The position numbers and the translations under genes were made by a program. From a virus (Duplodnaviria; Heunggongvirae; Uroviricota; Caudoviricetes), in IMG/VR virus record IMGVR_UViG_2778261570_000005, positions 1 to 6,936 of that record: DNA of 6,936 nucleotides; one strand, given 5' to 3'. Shown piece after piece: positions 1 through 6,936 of this stretch (its first letter is position 1; every line of letters starts with the position of its first letter). Below the pieces are notes generated by a model. The model did not search any database and had not been told where the DNA came from. It was given only the letters and a program-made list of their open reading frames with translations.

Positions 1-604
1 ACGCCGGCGTCAGTTTACCTTTAAGCCTGAGAGTTCCGGCCGGCAGAACCAGCTCGCAGCACAGACTGTCGGACGGTGTATTTATCTGCTCAACCTGCAC
101 GGGGGCCGGGATTTTATTATCCGGCTCCGGAGTTAACGTCACGGGAAGTAGCGATGTTTCATGTTCGCCGGGCGGCTGCAGGCCGCCGTTACGCCAGAGA
201 TGCCGCCAGTTAAAGAGCAGGTTATCGTTAATTCCATTCTCTCGAGCTATTTGTGCGACACAGGCACCGGGTAAAAGAGTTTGCTGAACAAGTCTCCATT
301 TAAACTCCGGTGAAAATCGGTTCCGGCGGGTTTTCTCTGCTTTCACAGGCTGAGTCACGGTCGGGGTTGAAGGATATCGCCCCGGGAAAAGAGCCCGGGC
401 CAGTTGCCCGCAGGAATATTCACCGGAAAGAGGCCAGTCAGTGAATACCTGGTGAAATCGCCTCACCAGAGAAAAAATGGCGGTTTTGCTGACACCAGTC
501 TGCGCAGAAATGCGCGGGTACGACAGTGACTCGTCAAATCTCAGCTGTAGCACACGCAGGATCAATTCCGGATTATCTGCCAGTACCGCCTTTCGTGCAT
601 TCAT
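1..604 (-). CDS. IS66-family Orf1/TnpA-like HTH protein, partial (start ATG at 604..602, runs off window at position 1)
   Basis: My own minus-strand translation from the ATG at 604..602 is open for 201 codons to position 1 (MNARKAVLADNPELILRVLQLRFDESLSYPRISAQTGVSKTAIFSLVRRF...RRNRFSPEFKWRLVQQTLLPGACVAQIAREHGINDNLLFNWRHLW...CELVLPAGTLRLKGKL). The ORF is missing from the supplied track because it has no stop in the window. The central motif matches the IS66 Orf1 signature as I recall it (RRRxS-E-K-xVQ-PGASVS-VAR-HGV-N-LF-WR). The first in-frame upstream stop is at 688..686. Confidence 0.5.
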   Translation of the reverse strand, partial: MNARKAVLADNPELILRVLQLRFDESLSYPRISAQTGVSKTAIFSLVRRFHQVFTDWPLSGEYSCGQLARALFPGRYPSTPTVTQPVKAEKTRRNRFSPEFKWRLVQQTLLPGACVAQIARENGINDNLLFNWRHLWRNGGLQPPGEHETSLLPVTLTPEPDNKIPAPVQVEQINTPSDSLCCELVLPAGTLRLKGKLTPA

Positions 605-689
605 CTTAAATGTCCTTTTACTGCGAAAATGGACATTAGTATCGGAAACAGGAAAGGAAGGCGAAAGACGGTTTAAATGATGCGCTTAC
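1..689 (-). mobile_element. putative left end of an IS66-family insertion sequence (terminus at 689; bulk of the element outside the window)
   Basis: Minus-strand sequence starting at 689 reads 5'-GTAAGCGCATCATTTAAACC; IS66-family inverted repeats characteristically begin 5'-GTAA(GCG). The TnpA-like ORF starts 85 bp inside this end. The boundary coincides exactly with the start of the sheath ORF at 690. Confidence 0.4.
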
Positions 690-2111
690 GTGCAGACCAT
701 CTCCACGGCAGTGATTGGCCTGGTGGGGACAGCGCCGGACGCCTCTGGTGGTGTGTGCGCTTCCGGCACAGCCGGCTCCTGGCTGCTGGGAACGGCGCTG
801 GATTTCACGGCGAAACAGGAAGGTCGGGCCGGTAATAAGATTTCGGTTGTTGCTGTGGCTGCCACAGAACAAAACGCGCAGACAGTGGCCTCGCTGAAAG
901 GTACGACCCTGACGATAACACTGGGGACGGACGAACACAGCCAGGTTAACGCCACGGCGGACCGTGTGACTGAAGTGGTGAATGCGCTGGGGGATTCGCC
1001 TGTGACGGTGGCTGTCAGCACTCTGAATGCAGGAGGCGCTGAAAATAAAGTGGTGTCGCCGTTCAGCCTGACGTTATCCGGCGGAGAAGATGAGGCGTTC
1101 CCGGTCAATACACCGGTGGTAGTGGCAGGGGCCATTACTCAGGCAGGGAAACTGGGCACAGCCGGAACATTATACCCGGCCCTGCGTGATATTTTTGACC
1201 AGACTGGTGCGCTGGTGATTGTGGTGCGCGCAGAAAGTAAAACAAAGGCGAAAGAGGCCGAACAGCGTGCGGCGGTGATTCAGGCCATGGAGGCGCTGAC
1301 AGAAAGTAAGGGCGTCACAGGCTATCAACCGCGCATCCTCATTGCCACGGGGTACAGTGAGGATGATGGCGTGGCAAAGGCGCTGGAAACGTATGCCGCG
1401 AAGTTGCGGGCTGTGGCCTATATTGACTCGCCCTCAATGGCAACGCCGCAGGATGTGGTTCAGCGGCGCGCGTCATTTGGCGGACGTGTGGAGCTGCTGC
1501 GTCCGCGCGTGTCAGTGACGGATGACAGCGGGCAAACGGTATTTCGTCCATATTCGGCTCGTGCTGCCGGGCTGCGTGCCCGTATTGATTATGAAAAAGG
1601 GTGGTGGTGGTCCAAATCAAACCAGGACGTGATGAATATCACCGGTCTGGAGCAGGTGGATACGTTTATTCTCGGGGAGCAGAACTGCACGGCAAACCTG
1701 CTGAACATGGAAAATATCTCCACCATTATTCGCCATGACGGTTTTAAACACTGGGGTAACCGTCTGTGCACATCCCACAGTCAGTGGCGCTTTGAACCGG
1801 TACGTCGCACTGCAGATGTGATTGAGGACAGTATCCAGGAGGCCATGTTGCCTTATGTCGATCGCCCGCTTGATCGGGATGTGGCAGACGACATTCTTGG
1901 CAGCATTAATGCCTATATGCGTCAGCTTAAAAATCTGGGTGCGATCCACGGTGGCAGCGCCTGGCTGAATGATGAACTGAATACAGCAGAAACCCTGGCT
2001 GCCGGGCAGTTGTATATCGATTATGACTTTGGGCCGAAGTCACCACTGGAGCGCCTGACACTGCGGGCGATGATTAACAATAAACTGGCGCTGGAGGAGC
2101 TGACGGTATGA
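690..2111 (+). CDS. contractile tail sheath protein (P2 gpFI family), apparently 5'-truncated with a fortuitous GTG start
   Basis: 473-codon ORF. N-terminal ISTAVIGLVGTAPDAS and C-terminal blocks (LRARIDYEKGWWWSKSNQDV, IIRHDGFKHWGNRLCTS, LYIDYDFGPKSPLERLTLRA) match conserved blocks of P2 FI-type sheaths as I recall them. The start is GTG with no Shine-Dalgarno within 5-12 nt, and an in-frame TGA lies at 678-680. Stop TGA 2109-2111 overlaps the tube start (ATGA). Confidence 0.85.
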   Translation: MQTISTAVIGLVGTAPDASGGVCASGTAGSWLLGTALDFTAKQEGRAGNKISVVAVAATEQNAQTVASLKGTTLTITLGTDEHSQVNATADRVTEVVNALGDSPVTVAVSTLNAGGAENKVVSPFSLTLSGGEDEAFPVNTPVVVAGAITQAGKLGTAGTLYPALRDIFDQTGALVIVVRAESKTKAKEAEQRAAVIQAMEALTESKGVTGYQPRILIATGYSEDDGVAKALETYAAKLRAVAYIDSPSMATPQDVVQRRASFGGRVELLRPRVSVTDDSGQTVFRPYSARAAGLRARIDYEKGWWWSKSNQDVMNITGLEQVDTFILGEQNCTANLLNMENISTIIRHDGFKHWGNRLCTSHSQWRFEPVRRTADVIEDSIQEAMLPYVDRPLDRDVADDILGSINAYMRQLKNLGAIHGGSAWLNDELNTAETLAAGQLYIDYDFGPKSPLERLTLRAMINNKLALEELTV

Positions 2112-2626
2112 TTACGGGTGAAAAAAAACTGTTGCGCGCATGGGCGTTATTTCTTCCTGGCGGGATCCGTCTTCAGGGGGCACATGAGTACACGCCGCCA
2201 GCCATTAATATCACGACAGTGGATATCAAAACCGGCGCAATGGATGCACCGGTGGCAGTGGATGACGGCATGGAAGCGCTGACCTGCTCATTTAAGATTT
2301 ATGGCTACGATGTTGCCATGCTGACCCTGCTGGGATTACAGGCCGGGCTTTATTCGCCGGAGATCGTTGTCCGCCAGGCTTACCGGGTGGGGAATGCGAC
2401 CAGCGGACAGGTGGAAACACTGCAGGGGATGATCACCAGTATCACGCCGGATGCGCGCCCGGCAACGTCACAGGCGGAGGCTTCGGTGACGGTGGAGATG
2501 TCGCTGAGTTATTACCGTCAGGCTGTAGATGGTCTGGAAACCATCTGCATTATTCCGGAGGAATTTGTTCGTCGTATTAACGGCGTTAATGTTCTGTCGG
2601 ATCTGAAAAAAATCATCCGGGTTTAA
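2108..2626 (+). CDS. tail tube protein (P2 gpFII family)
   Basis: 172 aa, the same length as P2 FII. C-terminal ...IIPEEFVRRINGVNVLSDLKKIIRV resembles the FII C-terminus (...KVNGVDRLEQHRRNIGL). GGAGGA at 2093-2098 lies upstream of the ATG at 2108. Start overlaps the sheath stop; position is immediately after the sheath gene. Confidence 0.8.
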   Translation: MITGEKKLLRAWALFLPGGIRLQGAHEYTPPAINITTVDIKTGAMDAPVAVDDGMEALTCSFKIYGYDVAMLTLLGLQAGLYSPEIVVRQAYRVGNATSGQVETLQGMITSITPDARPATSQAEASVTVEMSLSYYRQAVDGLETICIIPEEFVRRINGVNVLSDLKKIIRV

Positions 2627-2669: not shown

Positions 2670-2680
2670 AGGAGATGCTT

Positions 2681-2983
2681 ATGTCGGAAAAAAACAGTGT
2701 TCCTGCCAGCTGCGTGGAAATTGTGTTATCCGTGCCGTATGTCACCGCATCAGGACAGACGATCACGCACGTCACTATGCGTGCGCCCACTGTCCGCGAT
2801 CGTCTGTTGCATCGCCGGAGTAACAAACCGGAAGCAGAGGCTGATCTGGATATGATTGCTGGTCTGTGTGGGATGGACGCGGCAGACATGATGAACATGG
2901 AAGCGTGTGATTACCTGGCCCTGGAGCGTCAGTTTAATGTTTTTTTGCTGCCGCCGGTCCGGCGGAAGAAGAAAGCATCCTGA
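2681..2983 (+). CDS. tail assembly chaperone (P2 gpE-like), zero-frame product
   Basis: Small ORF between tube and tape measure genes. GGAG at 2671-2674 is 6 nt upstream of the ATG at 2681; the track start at 2675 has zero spacing to that GGAG and is less likely. Ends ...QFNVFLLPPVRRKKKAS with the slippery T-run near its 3' end. Confidence 0.7.
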   Translation: MSEKNSVPASCVEIVLSVPYVTASGQTITHVTMRAPTVRDRLLHRRSNKPEAEADLDMIAGLCGMDAADMMNMEACDYLALERQFNVFLLPPVRRKKKAS

Positions 2984-3120
2984 CAGCGATACGGCGTGCC
3001 GGTGCCTGGTTCGGGTGGTCTCCCGGAGATGTGATGGCGCTGCCGTATACGGATTTTGTGGCAATGATGCTGGCGGAGTCGGAAGAGAGGAAGCTATGTT
3101 ATGGCAACGGTGGGCGATAA
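2681..3120 (+). CDS. tail assembly chaperone frameshift product (P2 gpE+E'-like), join(2681..2947,2947..3120) by -1 frameshift
   Basis: The -1 frame opens right after a TAA at 2935-2937 and runs to TAA at 3118-3120. It encodes protein-like sequence (AAAGPAEEESILTAIRRAGAWFGWSPGDVMALPYTDFVAMMLAESEERK...). The slippery heptamer T_TTT_TTG sits at 2941-2947. Predicted fusion is about 146 aa (P2 E+E' is 142 aa). Confidence 0.6.
2941..2947 (+). promoter_or_regulatory. programmed -1 ribosomal frameshift slippery site (TTTTTTG)
   Basis: Heptamer T TTT TTG in the zero frame of the chaperone gene, at the start of the open -1 frame; the same heptamer is the conserved slip site of P2-family E/E+E' genes. 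Confidence 0.6.
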
Positions 3121-4753
3121 CCTTAAAGCGAATATCCGGATCGGAGGCACGATAGATCCGTCGTGGAAAAAATCGGTTGATGGGTTGAAGCACGGATTAT
3201 CAGGAGCAACACAGGAAGTGGCTCGTCTGACACGCCAGCAGGACGTACTGAAACGAAAAATTCAGGCTGGCGTACTGGCAGGGCAGGATATTACCGATCT
3301 GCGAAAGCAGTATGAAAAGCTGAAACGGAAAATCAATGATGCTGCAGCGGAGCAGGAGCGATTTAATCGCCAGCTTGAACGGGCAGAGCGCCTGGAACGC
3401 TGGAAAGGACGGGCAGGGACATTTCTTAAAACCGGACTCGGACTCTCTGTTGGTTCCGGGCTGACGCTGGCAGCAGGTGCCAGCGCGGTACTGAACCGGA
3501 ATTCGGAAACGGCAGAGCGGGCAGGGATAGCCCGGAGTTACGGGGTGGATTACGAAACCTATGCGGCGTGGGATTCACTGGGCCGTCAGATGGGGTTAAA
3601 CGGCGAAAACATTGGTGATCTGTTTGAGGAATACCGGAACAAGGTTTTTGACGATGATAATGGTGCCACGGATAAAGGGGCCATTCAGGAGGTCTTTGGC
3701 AAACTGGGACTGAAAGCCGGGGTGATGGCAGGGAAAAGTAACCAGGAGCAGGTCGAATTTTTATTTGATCGCTTACTGCAGGTAGAGAATGAACAGGTGG
3801 CTGCCGGAATGGCAGATGCGTTGTTCGGTGGTGAGGCCAATAAAATTCTGACCTGGATGCGTCTGTCAGGGAAAACTTATCGGGAGCTTATCAGTGAGCA
3901 GAAACGCTATAACCTGGTGACAAAGGCAGGGGCTGATGGCGCAGTTCAGGGACATGTGGCACTGTCAAATCTCCGTAATGTTCTGAGTTCTTCCATTGAT
4001 GAAATCAGCGGACAGCTGGGTAATGAACTTGCCCCACATATTCAACAGGTGACGGATGACCTTGCGGCCTGGTTTAAGAATGGTGGGCTGGAAAAAATCC
4101 GGGCATTTATTCGTGATGATGCCCTGCCGGCGCTGATCGACATGGCTGCCTGGATGTGGAAATTTGGAAAAGTTCTGGCCGGAATAACGCAGAAAGCCAT
4201 TGAGTGGGGGCTGGCAGATGATCCGCGTCAGGACCGGCGAGAGGTACTGGAATATCTGGCAAAAATGGGGTCGCCGGAGCTGGCGAGAGCGGTGGCGCAG
4301 AAAAACGGCCAGGGAGAATGGTTTGATGAACTGCTCAGGCAAAATCCGGATCTGACGAAACAGGTTGTACAGGCTTATAAAGACACCCGCGGTTATCTCC
4401 CCTGGAATCATGACGATAAAAAGTTTGATGCATTTCTCGACCCTCTGCTGGGGCCGAAAGAAGAACCTGATTTTAAGGCGATAAAAGAGAAATCCCGCAC
4501 CTACATTGATGGACTTCATGCAGCAGATCCGGGGCAGGGTAATTCGGATCCCCTCTCAGCTCTTCAGTATACACCCGGCAGTGTCAGCCAGGTGGAAGTA
4601 AAACCCACATATCAGATACGGGCGGAATTTAACATCACTCAGAAGCCCGGCGAGGATGCCGGACAACTGGCAGACAGGGTAACGAAAAATCTGGGAGATA
4701 TTAATTTTGGTCAGCGTTCCCGCATGACTGATGGTGATGCATTCTGGGGGTGA
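3101..4753 (+). CDS. tail tape measure protein (P2 gpT-like)
   Basis: 550 aa, directly downstream of the frameshifted chaperone pair. N-terminal charged, coiled-coil-like region (QQDVLKRKIQ..., LRKQYEKLKRKINDAAAEQERFNRQLERAERLERWK) followed by a Gly-rich hydrophobic segment (GLGLSVGSGLTLAAGASAVL). GAGGAAG at 3086-3092 precedes the ATG at 3101. Confidence 0.8.
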   Translation: MATVGDNLKANIRIGGTIDPSWKKSVDGLKHGLSGATQEVARLTRQQDVLKRKIQAGVLAGQDITDLRKQYEKLKRKINDAAAEQERFNRQLERAERLERWKGRAGTFLKTGLGLSVGSGLTLAAGASAVLNRNSETAERAGIARSYGVDYETYAAWDSLGRQMGLNGENIGDLFEEYRNKVFDDDNGATDKGAIQEVFGKLGLKAGVMAGKSNQEQVEFLFDRLLQVENEQVAAGMADALFGGEANKILTWMRLSGKTYRELISEQKRYNLVTKAGADGAVQGHVALSNLRNVLSSSIDEISGQLGNELAPHIQQVTDDLAAWFKNGGLEKIRAFIRDDALPALIDMAAWMWKFGKVLAGITQKAIEWGLADDPRQDRREVLEYLAKMGSPELARAVAQKNGQGEWFDELLRQNPDLTKQVVQAYKDTRGYLPWNHDDKKFDAFLDPLLGPKEEPDFKAIKEKSRTYIDGLHAADPGQGNSDPLSALQYTPGSVSQVEVKPTYQIRAEFNITQKPGEDAGQLADRVTKNLGDINFGQRSRMTDGDAFWG

Positions 4754-4755
4754 AT

Positions 4756-5244
4756 ATGGTGGATTTGCTGGGCTGGGGCGTAAACCGGCTTGAGCGTGAA
4801 GCATGGGACGCGGTGGGATCATTAACGGATGTCGCCTCCCGCGTCATGCTGTCGTTTGGTGAGTTTGAATTCAGTATTGATACTGCTGCTTATAACGCCA
4901 TGAAGCGCACGATGGAATGGCGATGGGATGAACAACAGCTTATCGGAAAAAACGACCTGCTGCAGTATACCGGCAAGGGGGCCAGAACAATAACCCTTGA
5001 AGGTATGGCGCATGCAGGATTTCGTGACGGTGTGGGAATGGACGCTCTTGATACACTGGTTCAGATGGTGGATGACAATCCGGCCCCGCATCTTCTGGTC
5101 TCGAGCACAGGTGATGTGATGGGGTATTTCGTGGCAACTGCCTATTCAGATAACACCACGTCCTTTCTTCCCGGCGGTGCGCCGAAGAACAAAACGTTCA
5201 CACTGGAGCTGAAATACTATGGCGAAAAACTGGCGGACCACTGA
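4756..5244 (+). CDS. tail protein, P2 gpU-like (tail terminator/sheath-completion-type)
   Basis: Size matches gpU (about 160 aa). Internal blocks YTGKGARTITLEGM, LLVSSTGDVMGYFV and KTFTLELKYY resemble P2 gpU as I recall it (YTGEGAETVTLTG, PLVSGSGRVLGTWV, KIDFTLEL). Start ambiguous: GTG at 4750 (track) or ATG at 4756 with GGGGG 5 nt upstream; the ATG is preferred. Confidence 0.8.
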   Translation: MVDLLGWGVNRLEREAWDAVGSLTDVASRVMLSFGEFEFSIDTAAYNAMKRTMEWRWDEQQLIGKNDLLQYTGKGARTITLEGMAHAGFRDGVGMDALDTLVQMVDDNPAPHLLVSSTGDVMGYFVATAYSDNTTSFLPGGAPKNKTFTLELKYYGEKLADH

Positions 5245-5437
5245 CGGCGATATGCTGGATGATATCTGTCAGAGACACTATGGCAGCGCCGGACTTAACC
5301 AGTCACTGGCGGCGGTACTGGAAGCCAATCCCGGACTGGCTGATATTGGTCCGGTCTATCCGGCGGGAGTGGAAATCGTGTTGCCGGACTGGGTGTATGA
5401 ACCGGAGGAAAAGGAGACGTTTCAGCTATGGGACTGA
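5219..5437 (+). CDS. tail protein X, P2 gpX-like (LysM-like)
   Basis: 72 aa. DGDMLDDICQRHYG...LEANPGLADIGPVYPAGVEIVLPD aligns with P2 gpX (QGDTLDAICVRYYG...LAANPGLAELGAVLPHGTAVELPD). Overlaps gpU 3' end by 26 nt and the gpD start by 10 nt. Confidence 0.8.
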   Translation: MAKNWRTTDGDMLDDICQRHYGSAGLNQSLAAVLEANPGLADIGPVYPAGVEIVLPDWVYEPEEKETFQLWD

Positions 5438-6516
5438 ATGAGTATCAGCCGGATTTCAGCCTGACAGCAGAGGGGGAGGATATCACGAAGGCCATAAAGC
5501 GGGGGCTGGCTGAACTGCGTTATACCGATAATGGTGCTGCCACAAAGCGCTCCGATGAACTGATGATAACCCTGTTCAGTGAGACGATGGCGCTGCCACC
5601 AAAAGGCGCAGTATTAACGCTGGGACTGGGATTCAACGGAAAACTGGTAAATAAAGGCAGCTTTACCGTCTGCCAGGTGGCAAGTGGCGGTCCTCCCCGC
5701 CGGATCACCATTTATGCCACCGCAGCCCCCATGAATGCGTCAAAACATGGCGCAGACGTGACCGCACTGAAAACCCGGGCTTTCAGCGATATCACACTGG
5801 GCGACCTGGTGAAAACCATCGCCACTGAAAATAATCTGGTGGCGCGCGTCTCATCGGTGCTTGCTGATATTCATATCCCGTGGGTGATGCAGTCATCAGA
5901 ATCTGATGCTGCCCTCTTGTCCCGCATTGCAGGTATGTACGGCGCCACCAGTAAACCGACCAATGGCTACTGGTTATTTCTGGAATACGGGGCATCACAA
6001 AGTACGGGGGGCAGAAATGCGCCTGAGATAACCATTATGCCGGGTATGGTATCAGACTGGGATTATCGTGAAGGTGAGCGACAGGGCGCTGCGGGTGGTG
6101 CGAAGGGGGATAAAAAGAGCGGGAAAGTTGGGGTCCGGTATTTTGATGCCCGTGACGGACGCACACGTGAAGTTAAAGTTGACGTGGAGTCAACAGATAA
6201 GCGGCATCCGTTTACCCAGCCTGACCATGGCACCGCAAAACACTGTGCAGAGTCGAAGGTTAAACGTGTGCAGAAAGCCGGACGCCAGATGACGATAACG
6301 TTGCCCTGCAGGCCGGAACTGCTGAAAGCAGGGGCGGAGATGCGTTTTGTCACGCAGGGATTTGGTGTGCGTGAGGACCATCACTGGCAGGCTGAGTCTG
6401 TGGAGTTTTCACTGGTACCGGGACAGGGATTTACGCTGAATCTGTCACTGACCACGGATATTTCTGCAAAGGGGAAAGCCAGTGGCAAGAAAAAAGGCGT
6501 CAATTATTTTGGTTAA
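5428..6516 (+). CDS. tail late control protein D (P2 gpD-like, baseplate hub-type)
   Basis: 362 aa. Blocks GAVLTLGLGFNGKLVNKGSFTV, TLGDLVKTIATENNLVARV and SESDAALLSRIAGMYGA correspond to P2 gpD (GAVLTVHIGWQGE...GKFTV, TLGAIVKAIAARNRLEARV, ESDAKFLTRLADRYGA). AAGGAG at 5410-5415 is upstream. Confidence 0.85.
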   Translation: MGLNEYQPDFSLTAEGEDITKAIKRGLAELRYTDNGAATKRSDELMITLFSETMALPPKGAVLTLGLGFNGKLVNKGSFTVCQVASGGPPRRITIYATAAPMNASKHGADVTALKTRAFSDITLGDLVKTIATENNLVARVSSVLADIHIPWVMQSSESDAALLSRIAGMYGATSKPTNGYWLFLEYGASQSTGGRNAPEITIMPGMVSDWDYREGERQGAAGGAKGDKKSGKVGVRYFDARDGRTREVKVDVESTDKRHPFTQPDHGTAKHCAESKVKRVQKAGRQMTITLPCRPELLKAGAEMRFVTQGFGVREDHHWQAESVEFSLVPGQGFTLNLSLTTDISAKGKASGKKKGVNYFG

Positions 6517-6540
6517 TGTTTTCTGAATCAGGAAATAAAC

Positions 6541-6936
6541 ATGTCTGTATTAATTTCGGGGGTGCTGACGGATGGCGCGGGACTCCCCATGTCCGGATAC
6601 CATATTATTCTGAAAGCCCGACAGAATACATCCGCAGTGGTCATGAGAACGGTGGCAACAGTGGTGACAGGGTCGGCAGGAGAATATGCATTTGGGGCTC
6701 AGACCGGAAGATATGACGTTTATCTTCGGTCATGTATTGAAAGAGAATATTGTGTTGGTGATATTTCGGTTTACGACGATTCAAAGCCCGGCACACTGAA
6801 CGACTTTCTGACCGCCCTTGATGAAGGCGATTTAAAGCCGGATGTAGTGAAACGCTTTGAGGAAATGGTGGCGCAGGCGCAGCAGAGCGCGGAAGCGGCA
6901 GCGGAAAGCGAACGACAGGCCGGGCAACATGTCGCT
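6541..6936 (+). CDS. tail fibre protein, N-terminal domain homologous to lambdoid side tail fibre Stf; 3'-partial (runs off window end)
   Basis: ATG at 6541 with AGGAAA 7 nt upstream; open for 132 codons to the window end, so absent from the supplied track. MSVLISGVLTDGAGLPMSGYHIILKARQNTSAVV...ISVYDDSKPGTLNDFLTAL...VVKRFEEMVAQAQQSAEAAAE closely parallels the lambda Stf N-terminus as I recall it (MAVKISGVLKDGTGKPVQNCTIQLKA..NSTTVV...ITVYEDSQPGTLNDFL...LRRFELMVEEVARNAS). Confidence 0.8.
   Translation, partial: MSVLISGVLTDGAGLPMSGYHIILKARQNTSAVVMRTVATVVTGSAGEYAFGAQTGRYDVYLRSCIEREYCVGDISVYDDSKPGTLNDFLTALDEGDLKPDVVKRFEEMVAQAQQSAEAAAESERQAGQHVA

Follow-up and report, generated by a model that had tools for sequence, protein, structure and literature searches.

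Positions 6517-6936 of the window, the term used here for the whole 6,936-nt stretch of DNA analysed, are best explained as the 5' portion of an accessory gene for a second tail fibre, which would belong to the same lambdoid prophage as the tail genes preceding it, one that combines a lambda-type head with a contractile tail of P2 type; we put the probability of this reading at about 0.85. Translation of the fibre would start 24 nt after gpD from its own Shine-Dalgarno sequence, and the gene would most likely be co-transcribed with the sheath-to-D unit. The product would be a trimeric fibre, with residues 1-94 forming a PfN/StfN beta-sandwich that would fix it to the virion, a coiled-coil shaft from about residue 100, and a distal part which, judging from relatives, would be either a very long collagen triple helix with a globular tip or a tip like that of lambda Stf and T4 gp37. 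This distal part would bind a host surface receptor and would require the chaperone gene(s) located downstream. In the prophage family the cassette always closes the tail operon, beside attR, and is optional; it is exchanged by recombination at two conserved joints, one upstream of the gene and one at the PGTLNDFL motif that links anchor to shaft, and would serve as a second swappable host-range determinant beside the P2-type gpH fibre. That the fibre is built into a virion of P2 type is a prediction, made for a prophage family known from genome sequences.

The window is organized as follows:

1-689, minus strand: tnpA-side end of an IS66-family insertion sequence that runs up to the sheath gene (95% identity to a region of phage GER2 that carries no annotation; matches to ISCro1/IS66 copies in E. 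coli genomes)
690-2111, plus strand: tail sheath gene without its first 18 codons (Pfam PF04984, PF17482, PF22671)
2108-2626, plus strand: tail tube gene, P2 FII type (PF04985, E = 3e-22)
2675-3120, plus strand: gpE-type tail assembly chaperone at 2675-2983, and its E' extension in the -1 frame, which stays open as far as 3120 (PF10109, E = 2e-12)
3101-4753, plus strand: tape measure protein, 550 aa (position and size; RefSeq 'phage tail tape measure protein' on the homologue in several genomes)
4750-5244, plus strand: gpU-type tail protein (PF06995, E = 3e-27)
5219-5437, plus strand: gpX-type tail protein (PF05489, E = 7e-19)
5428-6516, plus strand: gpD-type baseplate hub or 'late control D' protein, the last P2-type core gene (weak PF05954; tblastn)
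6517-6540, plus strand: spacer with Shine-Dalgarno AGGA at 6530-6533 (sequence; specific to the prophage family)
6541-6822, plus strand: Stf/PfN anchor, residues 1-94, a six-stranded beta-sandwich and short helix up to the PGTLNDFL motif region (PF08400, 9e7m, AF2, dN/dS of about 0.1)
6823-6936, plus strand: start of a long helix, residues 100-130 in the AF2 model (AF2; fibres of E. coli E41 and PSS-15)

The sheath-tube-E(/E')-T-U-X-D content of a P2-type contractile tail module is therefore present in the window. By tblastn its gpD is 28-50% identical, over more than 90% of the length, to the D proteins of phiCTX, Hafnia phage yong2 and Citrobacter phage Chris1. The gpE-type gene carries a slippery TTTTTTG at 2941-2947, and by analogy with E/E+E' of P2 we infer that E/E' frameshifting occurs. 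For the tape measure ORF the Pfam search returned zero families above the cut-off. At the other end of the module the IS66-family element adjoins sheath codon 19, and the first 18 codons and the ribosome-binding site found in E. coli PSS-15 are absent from the window; in locus L001 the start of the intact sheath homologue lies 53 nt before the position at which homology to the window sets in. The sheath gene is free of IS elements in the intact relatives E41, PSS-15 and VTB97432v. The same IS66-family element (tnpA-tnpB-tnpC) lies between tfa and the sheath gene in E. coli M8. Because this element removes the start of the sheath gene, the tail module of the window's own strain is probably defective, and this copy of the prophage may be non-functional as a phage.

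Downstream of the gpD stop codon (TAA, 6514-6516), the Shine-Dalgarno AGGA lies within the 24-nt spacer, 7 nt 5' of an ATG at 6541 that opens a reading frame continuing through the end of the window, with 132 codons inside it. A scan of the interval between gpD and the fibre start for promoter-like or terminator-like sites found none, and on the minus strand of 6517-6936 a 51-aa ORF was seen and nothing else notable. The 132-aa ORF matched the Pfam family PF08400, 'Prophage tail fibre N-terminal', with an E-value of 1e-56 and 191 bits (the gathering threshold, used as cut-off, is 26.6 bits), over profile positions 1-130 of 134. A phmmer search against the PDB matched it to residues 1-93 of the N-domain of Ur-lambda Stf (9e7m/9mgh; E = 3e-18, 46% identity), and in a profile search lambda StfN (9e7m) matched the anchor profile with E = 1e-42. 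The AF2 model of the 132 residues (pLDDT 80.7) has six strands within residues 2-77, a short helix at 86-90 and a long helix at 100-130, and in Foldseek its top PDB match, alongside the collar spike of phage XM1, was 9e7m (TM 0.88 normalised to the target, 46% identity). These results confirm that the ORF and the identity of its N-domain are far beyond chance, and they bear out the first-pass annotation in placing a lambda-Stf-like N-domain, with its own ribosome-binding site, 24 nt after gpD. The anchor is under strong purifying selection within the prophage family: dN/dS on codons 1-96 was 0.08-0.2, with values of 0.08-0.11 within the family and 0.1-0.3 between lineages.

At least 80% of the window is covered in 74 of 5426 complete E. 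coli genomes, and by this measure it is E. coli DNA. In PSS-15, which is 98.7% identical, the module lies inside a single prophage of ~50 kb inserted in ompW. From its start this element carries int, xis, exo, dicB, the repressor region, replication genes, RusA, Q, lysis genes and a lambda-type head (terminase, portal, S49 protease, decoration protein, capsid, FI and FII-like genes). Two neck or tail-completion genes follow, and then V-W-J-I, a PF12571 gpH-type fibre, a Caudo_TAP tfa, the genes from sheath to gpD, a 798-aa PF08400 fibre, DUF4376 and DUF1353 genes, a few remnants and the ompW 3' fragment. One int gene and one ompW duplication surround the whole, with neither a second att site, integrase or structural set nor host DNA between the modules. 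The same layout was found in M8 at potB, where an Stf of 465 aa and tfa are followed by potB, and in E41 at a tRNA-Ser next to the hya operon, where an Stf of 708 aa and a DUF4376 gene precede the tRNA; E41 is 100% identical to the window over 6100-6936. At all three integration sites the Stf cassette is the last structural cassette before attR. In place of P2-type head, lysis and regulatory genes, the relatives carry lambda-type int/xis, Q and a lambda-like set from terminase to FI/FII, and by this gene content the fibre gene is part of a single lambdoid prophage with a P2-type tail. Q, the lysis genes and the lambda-like head mark the whole prophage as lambdoid, so that a fibre of lambda type is no foreign element there.

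This layout is routine within the family. gpD and the D/Stf junction, each at no less than 80% coverage, were both recovered in the same number of genomes as the window itself, that is, 74 of 5426. A scan of IMG/VR with the 132-aa anchor as the query gave 80 loci at 74-98% identity, which were classed by tblastn with marker proteins. Among these 80, the layout of the window, with gpD ending about 24 nt before Stf, was seen in 26 loci and one remnant (L031). A Rac-SA53-like context surrounded Stf in 32 loci, a phiP27-like context with a Mu-type tail in nine and a lambda-like context in three; six belonged to a sister lineage in which V and sheath…D are followed by W-J-I-H-tfa and then Stf, and three were unclassified. 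The spacer is the same or nearly so in L001, L031 and M8, and is unlike the tfa-Stf joint of the other lineages. Comparison of gene order with related prophages, as advised in the first-pass annotation, placed Stf and its chaperone(s) at the end of the phage genes, where host DNA resumes. Whatever the context, the final fibre cassette of the tail operon is Stf, situated after tfa or, in the family of the window, after gpD; the terminal position is also seen in phiP27, Rac-SA53, pPE4 and the lineage with the yong2-type order, such as L084, and in lambda-like prophages the window-type Stf comes second, after an Stf and tfa. The sequenced phages nearest by gpD, yong2 (50%) and Chris1 (47.5%), have the sister gene order and no annotated Stf. 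Exceptions to the layout were IS insertions (strains E275a and TUM9812), a deletion (STEC307) and strain A19. In A19 a related prophage, with 86.6% nucleotide identity in gpD, stops at gpD, which adjoins the host gene yodB, and the cassette is absent. The Stf cassette is thus optional, and gpD was the last structural gene in the A19 variant only, and neither in the window nor in the 74 genomes.

The window reaches 132 codons of the fibre gene, and its distal part and chaperones are deduced from relatives. Throughout these 132 residues the fibres of E41 and PSS-15 show no difference from the window; they continue as a coiled coil to about residue 203, followed by a Gly-X-Y collagen repeat of 354 or 444 residues with an 18-residue unit and by a C-terminal domain of about 150 residues. 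PfN, coiled coil and collagen are all present in these fibres, but Pfam did not find PF06820 (PfC), the C-terminal trimerisation domain of EPcl proteins, in their C-terminal domains. The M8 fibre instead has a lambda-Stf/gp37-like C-terminus (Collar domain) and a Caudo_TAP tfa. On the conserved anchor, fibres of 405, 465, 467, 654, 667, 708, 726, 757, 798, 1042 and 1046 aa were found, with N-domains about 90-98% identical and less so in the most diverged members, and the chaperones differ with the distal part, being either DUF4376 with or without DUF1353, or a Caudo_TAP tfa. Furthermore, some database proteins are chimeras that switch from a lambda-type sandwich to a window-type helix precisely at the invariant PGTLNDFL motif. 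Taken together, the distal variety, the chimeras and the purifying selection suggest that the gene encodes a functional, modular and exchangeable second receptor-binding fibre. By homology with Ur-lambda Stf, it would most likely add to or alter the host range alongside the gpH-type fibre. The view of the first-pass annotation that this is a mosaic in which host-range determinants are swapped is well founded in this respect, given one N-domain that bears fibres of 405-1046 aa with differing chaperones, and the absence of the cassette from A19.

The anchor itself occurs in several subtypes. That of the window (…SCIEREYCVGD…) is 87-91% identical to the anchors of M8 and of the second Stf of the lambda-like locus L029, 73-79% identical to the QDWRDE type found in Rac-SA53, phiP27, the sister lineage and L038, and 43-49% identical to the lambda anchor. 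Among 307 phage records, anchor identity above 60% was confined to Rac-SA53, phiP27 (two records) and pPE4, and all siphoviruses were at or below 47%. The idea that the window-type anchor is specific to contractile tails was nevertheless ruled out by the lambda-like loci L029, L030 and L038, which carry M, L, J, lom and a lambda-type Stf (with tfa in L029) plus a second Stf with a window-type anchor, 75-88% identical. Likewise, the variable loop (SCIERE vs QDWRDE) does not track tail type, since the QDWRDE anchor is 96-100% identical on Mu-type, Rac-SA53-type and P2-type contractile tails. Intermediates and chimeras of the anchor types are also present in the protein database, where the matches are mostly partial proteins.

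From the position of the fibre after gpD, the first-pass annotation had proposed either a junction with a second lambdoid prophage remnant or a rearranged module order. In the former, the P2-type module would end at gpD and Stf would come from a neighbouring degraded lambda-like prophage. The lambda-Stf type of the N-domain speaks for this, as do the A19 prophage ending at gpD and the fact that gpD closes the structural module both in P2, where ogr and int come next, and in R-pyocins, whereas here an extra fibre cassette follows. However, the element is a single prophage that runs from int at one end to the att-site duplication at the other (the ompW 3' fragment in PSS-15), its layout recurs unchanged at three integration sites, where Stf and chaperone lie directly against host genes, and the 24-nt joint is shared by the members of the family, which were found in 74 genomes and 26 viral contigs. 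In addition, tblastn of the IMG/VR loci with marker proteins found none of the lambda tail genes V, H, M, L, J and lom flanking Stf in the prophage family. A junction is accordingly hardly credible, and a fibre after gpD is, on the evidence of gene order, the ordinary layout of this family. A rearrangement, in which the sole fibre gene would have moved from upstream of the sheath to downstream of gpD, is in our opinion very unlikely. It could be argued from yong2, Chris1 and the six IMG/VR loci of the sister lineage, in which W-J-I-H-tfa lie after gpD, and from the window itself, where the IS replaces the region upstream of the sheath and H/G genes are not visible there. Against it, the intact close relatives keep the P2 order V-W-J-I-H(PF12571)-tfa-sheath-tube-E-T-U-X-D, with the PF12571 fibre and Caudo_TAP tfa between gpI and the sheath, and carry Stf in addition, while the lineage with the other gene order still has Stf last, after H and tfa. 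Since the PF12571 fibre and its tfa are retained beside Stf, the latter does not replace the primary fibre.

It is also conceivable that Stf has spread by recombination and is not assembled on the P2-type virion, being kept as a reservoir or becoming usable after transfer to a compatible tail. This would agree with the lack of an exposed equivalent of the lambda gpV/gpM docking site on a sheathed tail, with the 96-100% identical anchors on unrelated tails, with the dispensability of the cassette in A19 and with the IS elements that interrupt it in some strains. We nevertheless consider this unlikely, as the anchor shows a dN/dS of about 0.1 within the family, many full-length variants are intact, each with its matching chaperone, the translation signals are conserved, and a PfN homologue is a proven virion component of the contractile phage XM1. 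The accessory second fibre of a single lambdoid prophage thus remains the reading that we prefer.

If the fibre is assembled on the virion, where would it dock? In lambda, a collar of twelve StfN domains surrounds the tail where the last gpV tube ring meets the gpM ring (PMC12617516). tblastn with marker proteins found no gpV or gpM homologues in the prophage family. Because a sheathed tail hides the junction of tube and distal tail protein and gpV and gpM are absent, the lambda docking site is probably unavailable on a P2-type tail, with no exposed equivalent. On the other hand, the N-domain of the collar spike gp40 of XM1 matched the anchor profile with E = 3.6e-6 over residues 1-127 and gave a Foldseek TM of 0.61-0.63, and in this contractile phage six gp40 trimers bind the neck via the connector gp4 and the terminator gp5 (PMC10457771). 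Weaker fold matches in Foldseek were the neck fibre of the myophage A-1(L) and tail-tip proteins of Bxb1. The solved precedents for such anchors are at the tail tip in siphoviruses and at the neck in myoviruses, and as the myovirus precedents sit on the neck, our best guess is that the anchor docks as a neck collar, on the head-tail connector or tail terminator rings, and not at the lambda site; docking on the baseplate or the primary fibre is possible. Candidate partners, with their coordinates in locus L001, would be the FII-like head closure protein (13953-14357), the Neck1 or tail completion protein (14338-15060) and a phrog_1072 protein (15072-15623), besides the sheath, gpJ and gpI. Standard rise values give a rough estimate of about 103-129 nm for the collagen part (about 0.29 nm per residue) and of about 83 nm for a tail with a 550-aa tape measure (about 0.15 nm per residue). 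A neck-docked fibre would be physically possible, because the estimated collagen length exceeds that of the tail.

By sequence comparison, the near-identical anchors on unrelated tails appear hard to reconcile with a specific docking partner. A tentative proposal, which we regard as doubtful, is that the PF08400 anchor of contractile coliphages is a neck collar from which collagen fibres hang past the baseplate, and that its docking is generic on P2-, Mu- and Rac-SA53-type and lambda-like tails. If this were true, the cassette would be a near-universal plug-in host-range module. Knowing how one anchor docks on sheathed tails and on several unrelated ones would be useful for the engineering of host range in phages and tailocins.

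The kind of gene, its domain and its general genomic habit are already known, and RefSeq annotates the gene. In contrast, we found no isolated or described representative of the prophage family among the sequenced phages or in the literature searched. When the entire window was compared with sequenced phages by megablast, matches were confined to the IS end and the N-domain of the fibre, with zero isolates of the prophage family, and no description of the layout was found in the literature on this family, on 'lambda-like head / P2-like tail' hybrids, or on Rac-SA53, yong2 and Chris1. A paper on Sf14 was discarded as a source, as it concerns short tail fibres of T4 type and not Stf. These results imply that annotators should not take a PF08400 'lambda-like' fibre immediately behind gpD for a prophage boundary or an assembly artefact; the reading as a mosaic junction gives way to that of a normal family layout. 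They would also provide a further case of temperate phages with two fibre systems, the second of which passes freely from one unrelated type of tail to another.

Ur-lambda Stf, a fibre that accelerates adsorption and has OmpC as its receptor (PMC12617516), resembles the present fibre in its homologous anchor and in being accessory, as laboratory lambda is without a working copy; judged from relatives, the linker and trimeric coiled coil after the anchor and the fibre chaperone gene downstream would be further common traits, and the M8 variant further shares the lambda-Stf-like C-terminus and tfa. It differs in that the tail here is contractile, of P2 type and without gpV/gpM homologues, in that the anchor is of a distinct subtype, and in that the distal part of the nearest relatives is collagen-like. 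The latter feature recalls EPclA-D (Ghosh et al. 2012, PMC3368898), prophage proteins with the arrangement PfN-coiled coil-collagen for which experiments showed trimers of dumbbell shape with a length of about 60 nm. The E41 and PSS-15 fibres have the same order of PfN, coiled coil, collagen and C-terminal globular domain; however, their collagen comprises 354-444 residues versus a longest reported length of 322, and EPclA-D come from EHEC prophages, including short-tailed Stx phages, and not from a P2-type contractile tail.

XM1 gp40 (7kjk) is a remote homologue (24% identity) of the anchor and of the start of the coiled coil, and shows docking on a contractile-tailed virion, although it is neck-docked as six trimers and its distal part is a tailspike. 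With P2 the prophage shares the content and order of the genes FI-FII-E-T-U-D and, in the intact relatives, the gpH-type fibre and tfa before the sheath, while the rest of the relatives' prophage (regulation, lysis and head) is lambdoid. The likeness to L56 of phiP27 and tail3 of Rac-SA53 includes the anchor subtype (amino-acid identity of 77-79% within the first 100 residues), the position as the final fibre gene ahead of attR, with a DUF4376-type or small fibre gene behind it, and the addition to a primary fibre and tfa on a contractile tail. Their tails, however, are of Mu type and of phrog_205-sheath type, respectively, and their Stf follows the conserved tfa-Stf joint, whereas here it follows gpD through the family-specific 24-nt spacer. 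A match labelled 'DH5alpha' corresponded to a Rac-SA53-like prophage and not to the classical K-12 stf gene.

The fibres of the E. coli PSS-15 and E41 prophage regions, which belong to the same family as the window, are available at full length, and both contain a collagen-like domain:

L001 25853-28249, full-length PSS-15 fibre, whose Gly-X-Y collagen repeat runs uninterrupted for 444 residues
L091 7442-9568, full-length E41 fibre, whose Gly-X-Y collagen repeat runs uninterrupted for 354 residues

In both proteins the repeat is built from an 18-residue unit, and the two differ in length by exactly five units. Both exceed the 322-residue domain that a 2012 survey of collagen in E. coli prophages described as by far the longest (PMC3368898). 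The C-terminal domain of approximately 150 amino acids that the two fibres carry gave no match in Pfam.

Two chimeric anchors, P0107 and P0110, joined a window-type linker and helix to a lambda-type beta-sandwich, with the joint exactly at the invariant PGTLNDFL motif (columns 83-92 of alignment A1); the motif resembles a joint at which anchor and shaft recombine. Upstream of the anchor, a comparison of the 70 nt preceding the Stf ATG in L002, L003, L008, L036, L046, L059, L067, L073 and L084 revealed one conserved block, which extends from the tfa 3' end across a spacer of about 23 nt into the start of Stf, in loci of the Rac-SA53, phiP27 and sister P2 types. Therefore, the tip of the primary fibre, tfa and the Stf anchor may move together. 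The window's family differs from these tfa-Stf lineages in having its own spacer and in its location after gpD. In PSS-15, the segment running from the Stf cassette to attR (L001 29423-32470) contains a DUF4376 gene that has lost its 5' end, along with an ORF6N gene interrupted by IS100, both of which are probably scars of past cassette exchange. The related E. coli A19 prophage (L092 9001-10913) lacks the Stf cassette altogether, with gpD as its last gene, about 800 nt ahead of the host yodB, which shows that the cassette is optional.

The sister lineage (Hafnia phage yong2, Citrobacter phage Chris1, L067, L072, L081 and L083-L085) is also a hybrid of a lambda-type head with a P2-type tail; its tail genes follow a different order from that of the window's family, namely V, sheath…U-X-D and then W-J-I-fibre-tfa. 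Its prophage members have a PF08400 fibre added downstream of tfa, whereas Chris1 carries instead an invertible fibre segment and a DNA invertase.

Three lambda-like loci, L029 (7049-10765), L030 and L038 (6661-12346), harbored two tandem Stf genes of differing anchor subtype downstream of M, L, J and lom, the lambda-type anchor being first and the window-type second. In L029 a tfa gene follows the first Stf. L038 contains a stop-interrupted copy of the tfa-spacer-Stf block, and only a stop-interrupted remnant of a tfa 3' end separates its two Stf genes. If one virion had both anchor types, either two docking sites or rivalry for a single one would be implied.

Two putative expression signals were located among the tail genes, one in the window and one in PSS-15:

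window 2941-2947, P2-style slippery heptamer TTTTTTG, shortly before the gpE-type chaperone gene ends
L001 19893-19948, strong terminator-like hairpin separating the tfa and sheath genes, with the sequence GACCGCCTGAGGGCGG and then TTTTTTT

Past the heptamer, the -1 frame remains open up to 3120 and overlaps the tape-measure start, as expected for an E/E+E' programmed frameshift. Given the position of the hairpin, sheath…D-Stf may form a separate unit, comparable to the P2 F operon and read through under Q antitermination.

An IS66-family element (window 1-689) directly abuts GTG 690 of the sheath gene, which is consequently missing both its ribosome-binding site and codons 1-18; this prophage copy is probably tail-defective. 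E. coli M8 carries the same IS 48 nt farther upstream, at sheath codon 4-5, flanked by the 8-bp target duplication GGATTACA. Either the element inserted independently in the two prophages, or a deletion next to the IS accounts for the different positions. In E. coli TUM9812 (L007 14852-17899) a copy of ISCro1, also of the IS66 family, interrupts the Stf anchor domain, and the fibre region downstream of it is broken up into pseudogenes.

The tail region of Actinobacillus phage vB_Apl-pPE4 (L008) is collinear gene-for-gene with that of E. coli phage Rac-SA53, and the beginning of its fibre shares 79.5% identity with the window; the attribution of this record to Actinobacillus pleuropneumoniae as host looks doubtful.

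The gpI-type baseplate protein has 803 aa in M8 (L006 7559-9970) vs. 196 aa in PSS-15, and is longer still in A19 (L092 1-2552); the M8 and A19 proteins appear to be fusions to a long extension. In A19 the long gpI coincides with the missing Stf; M8 has both.
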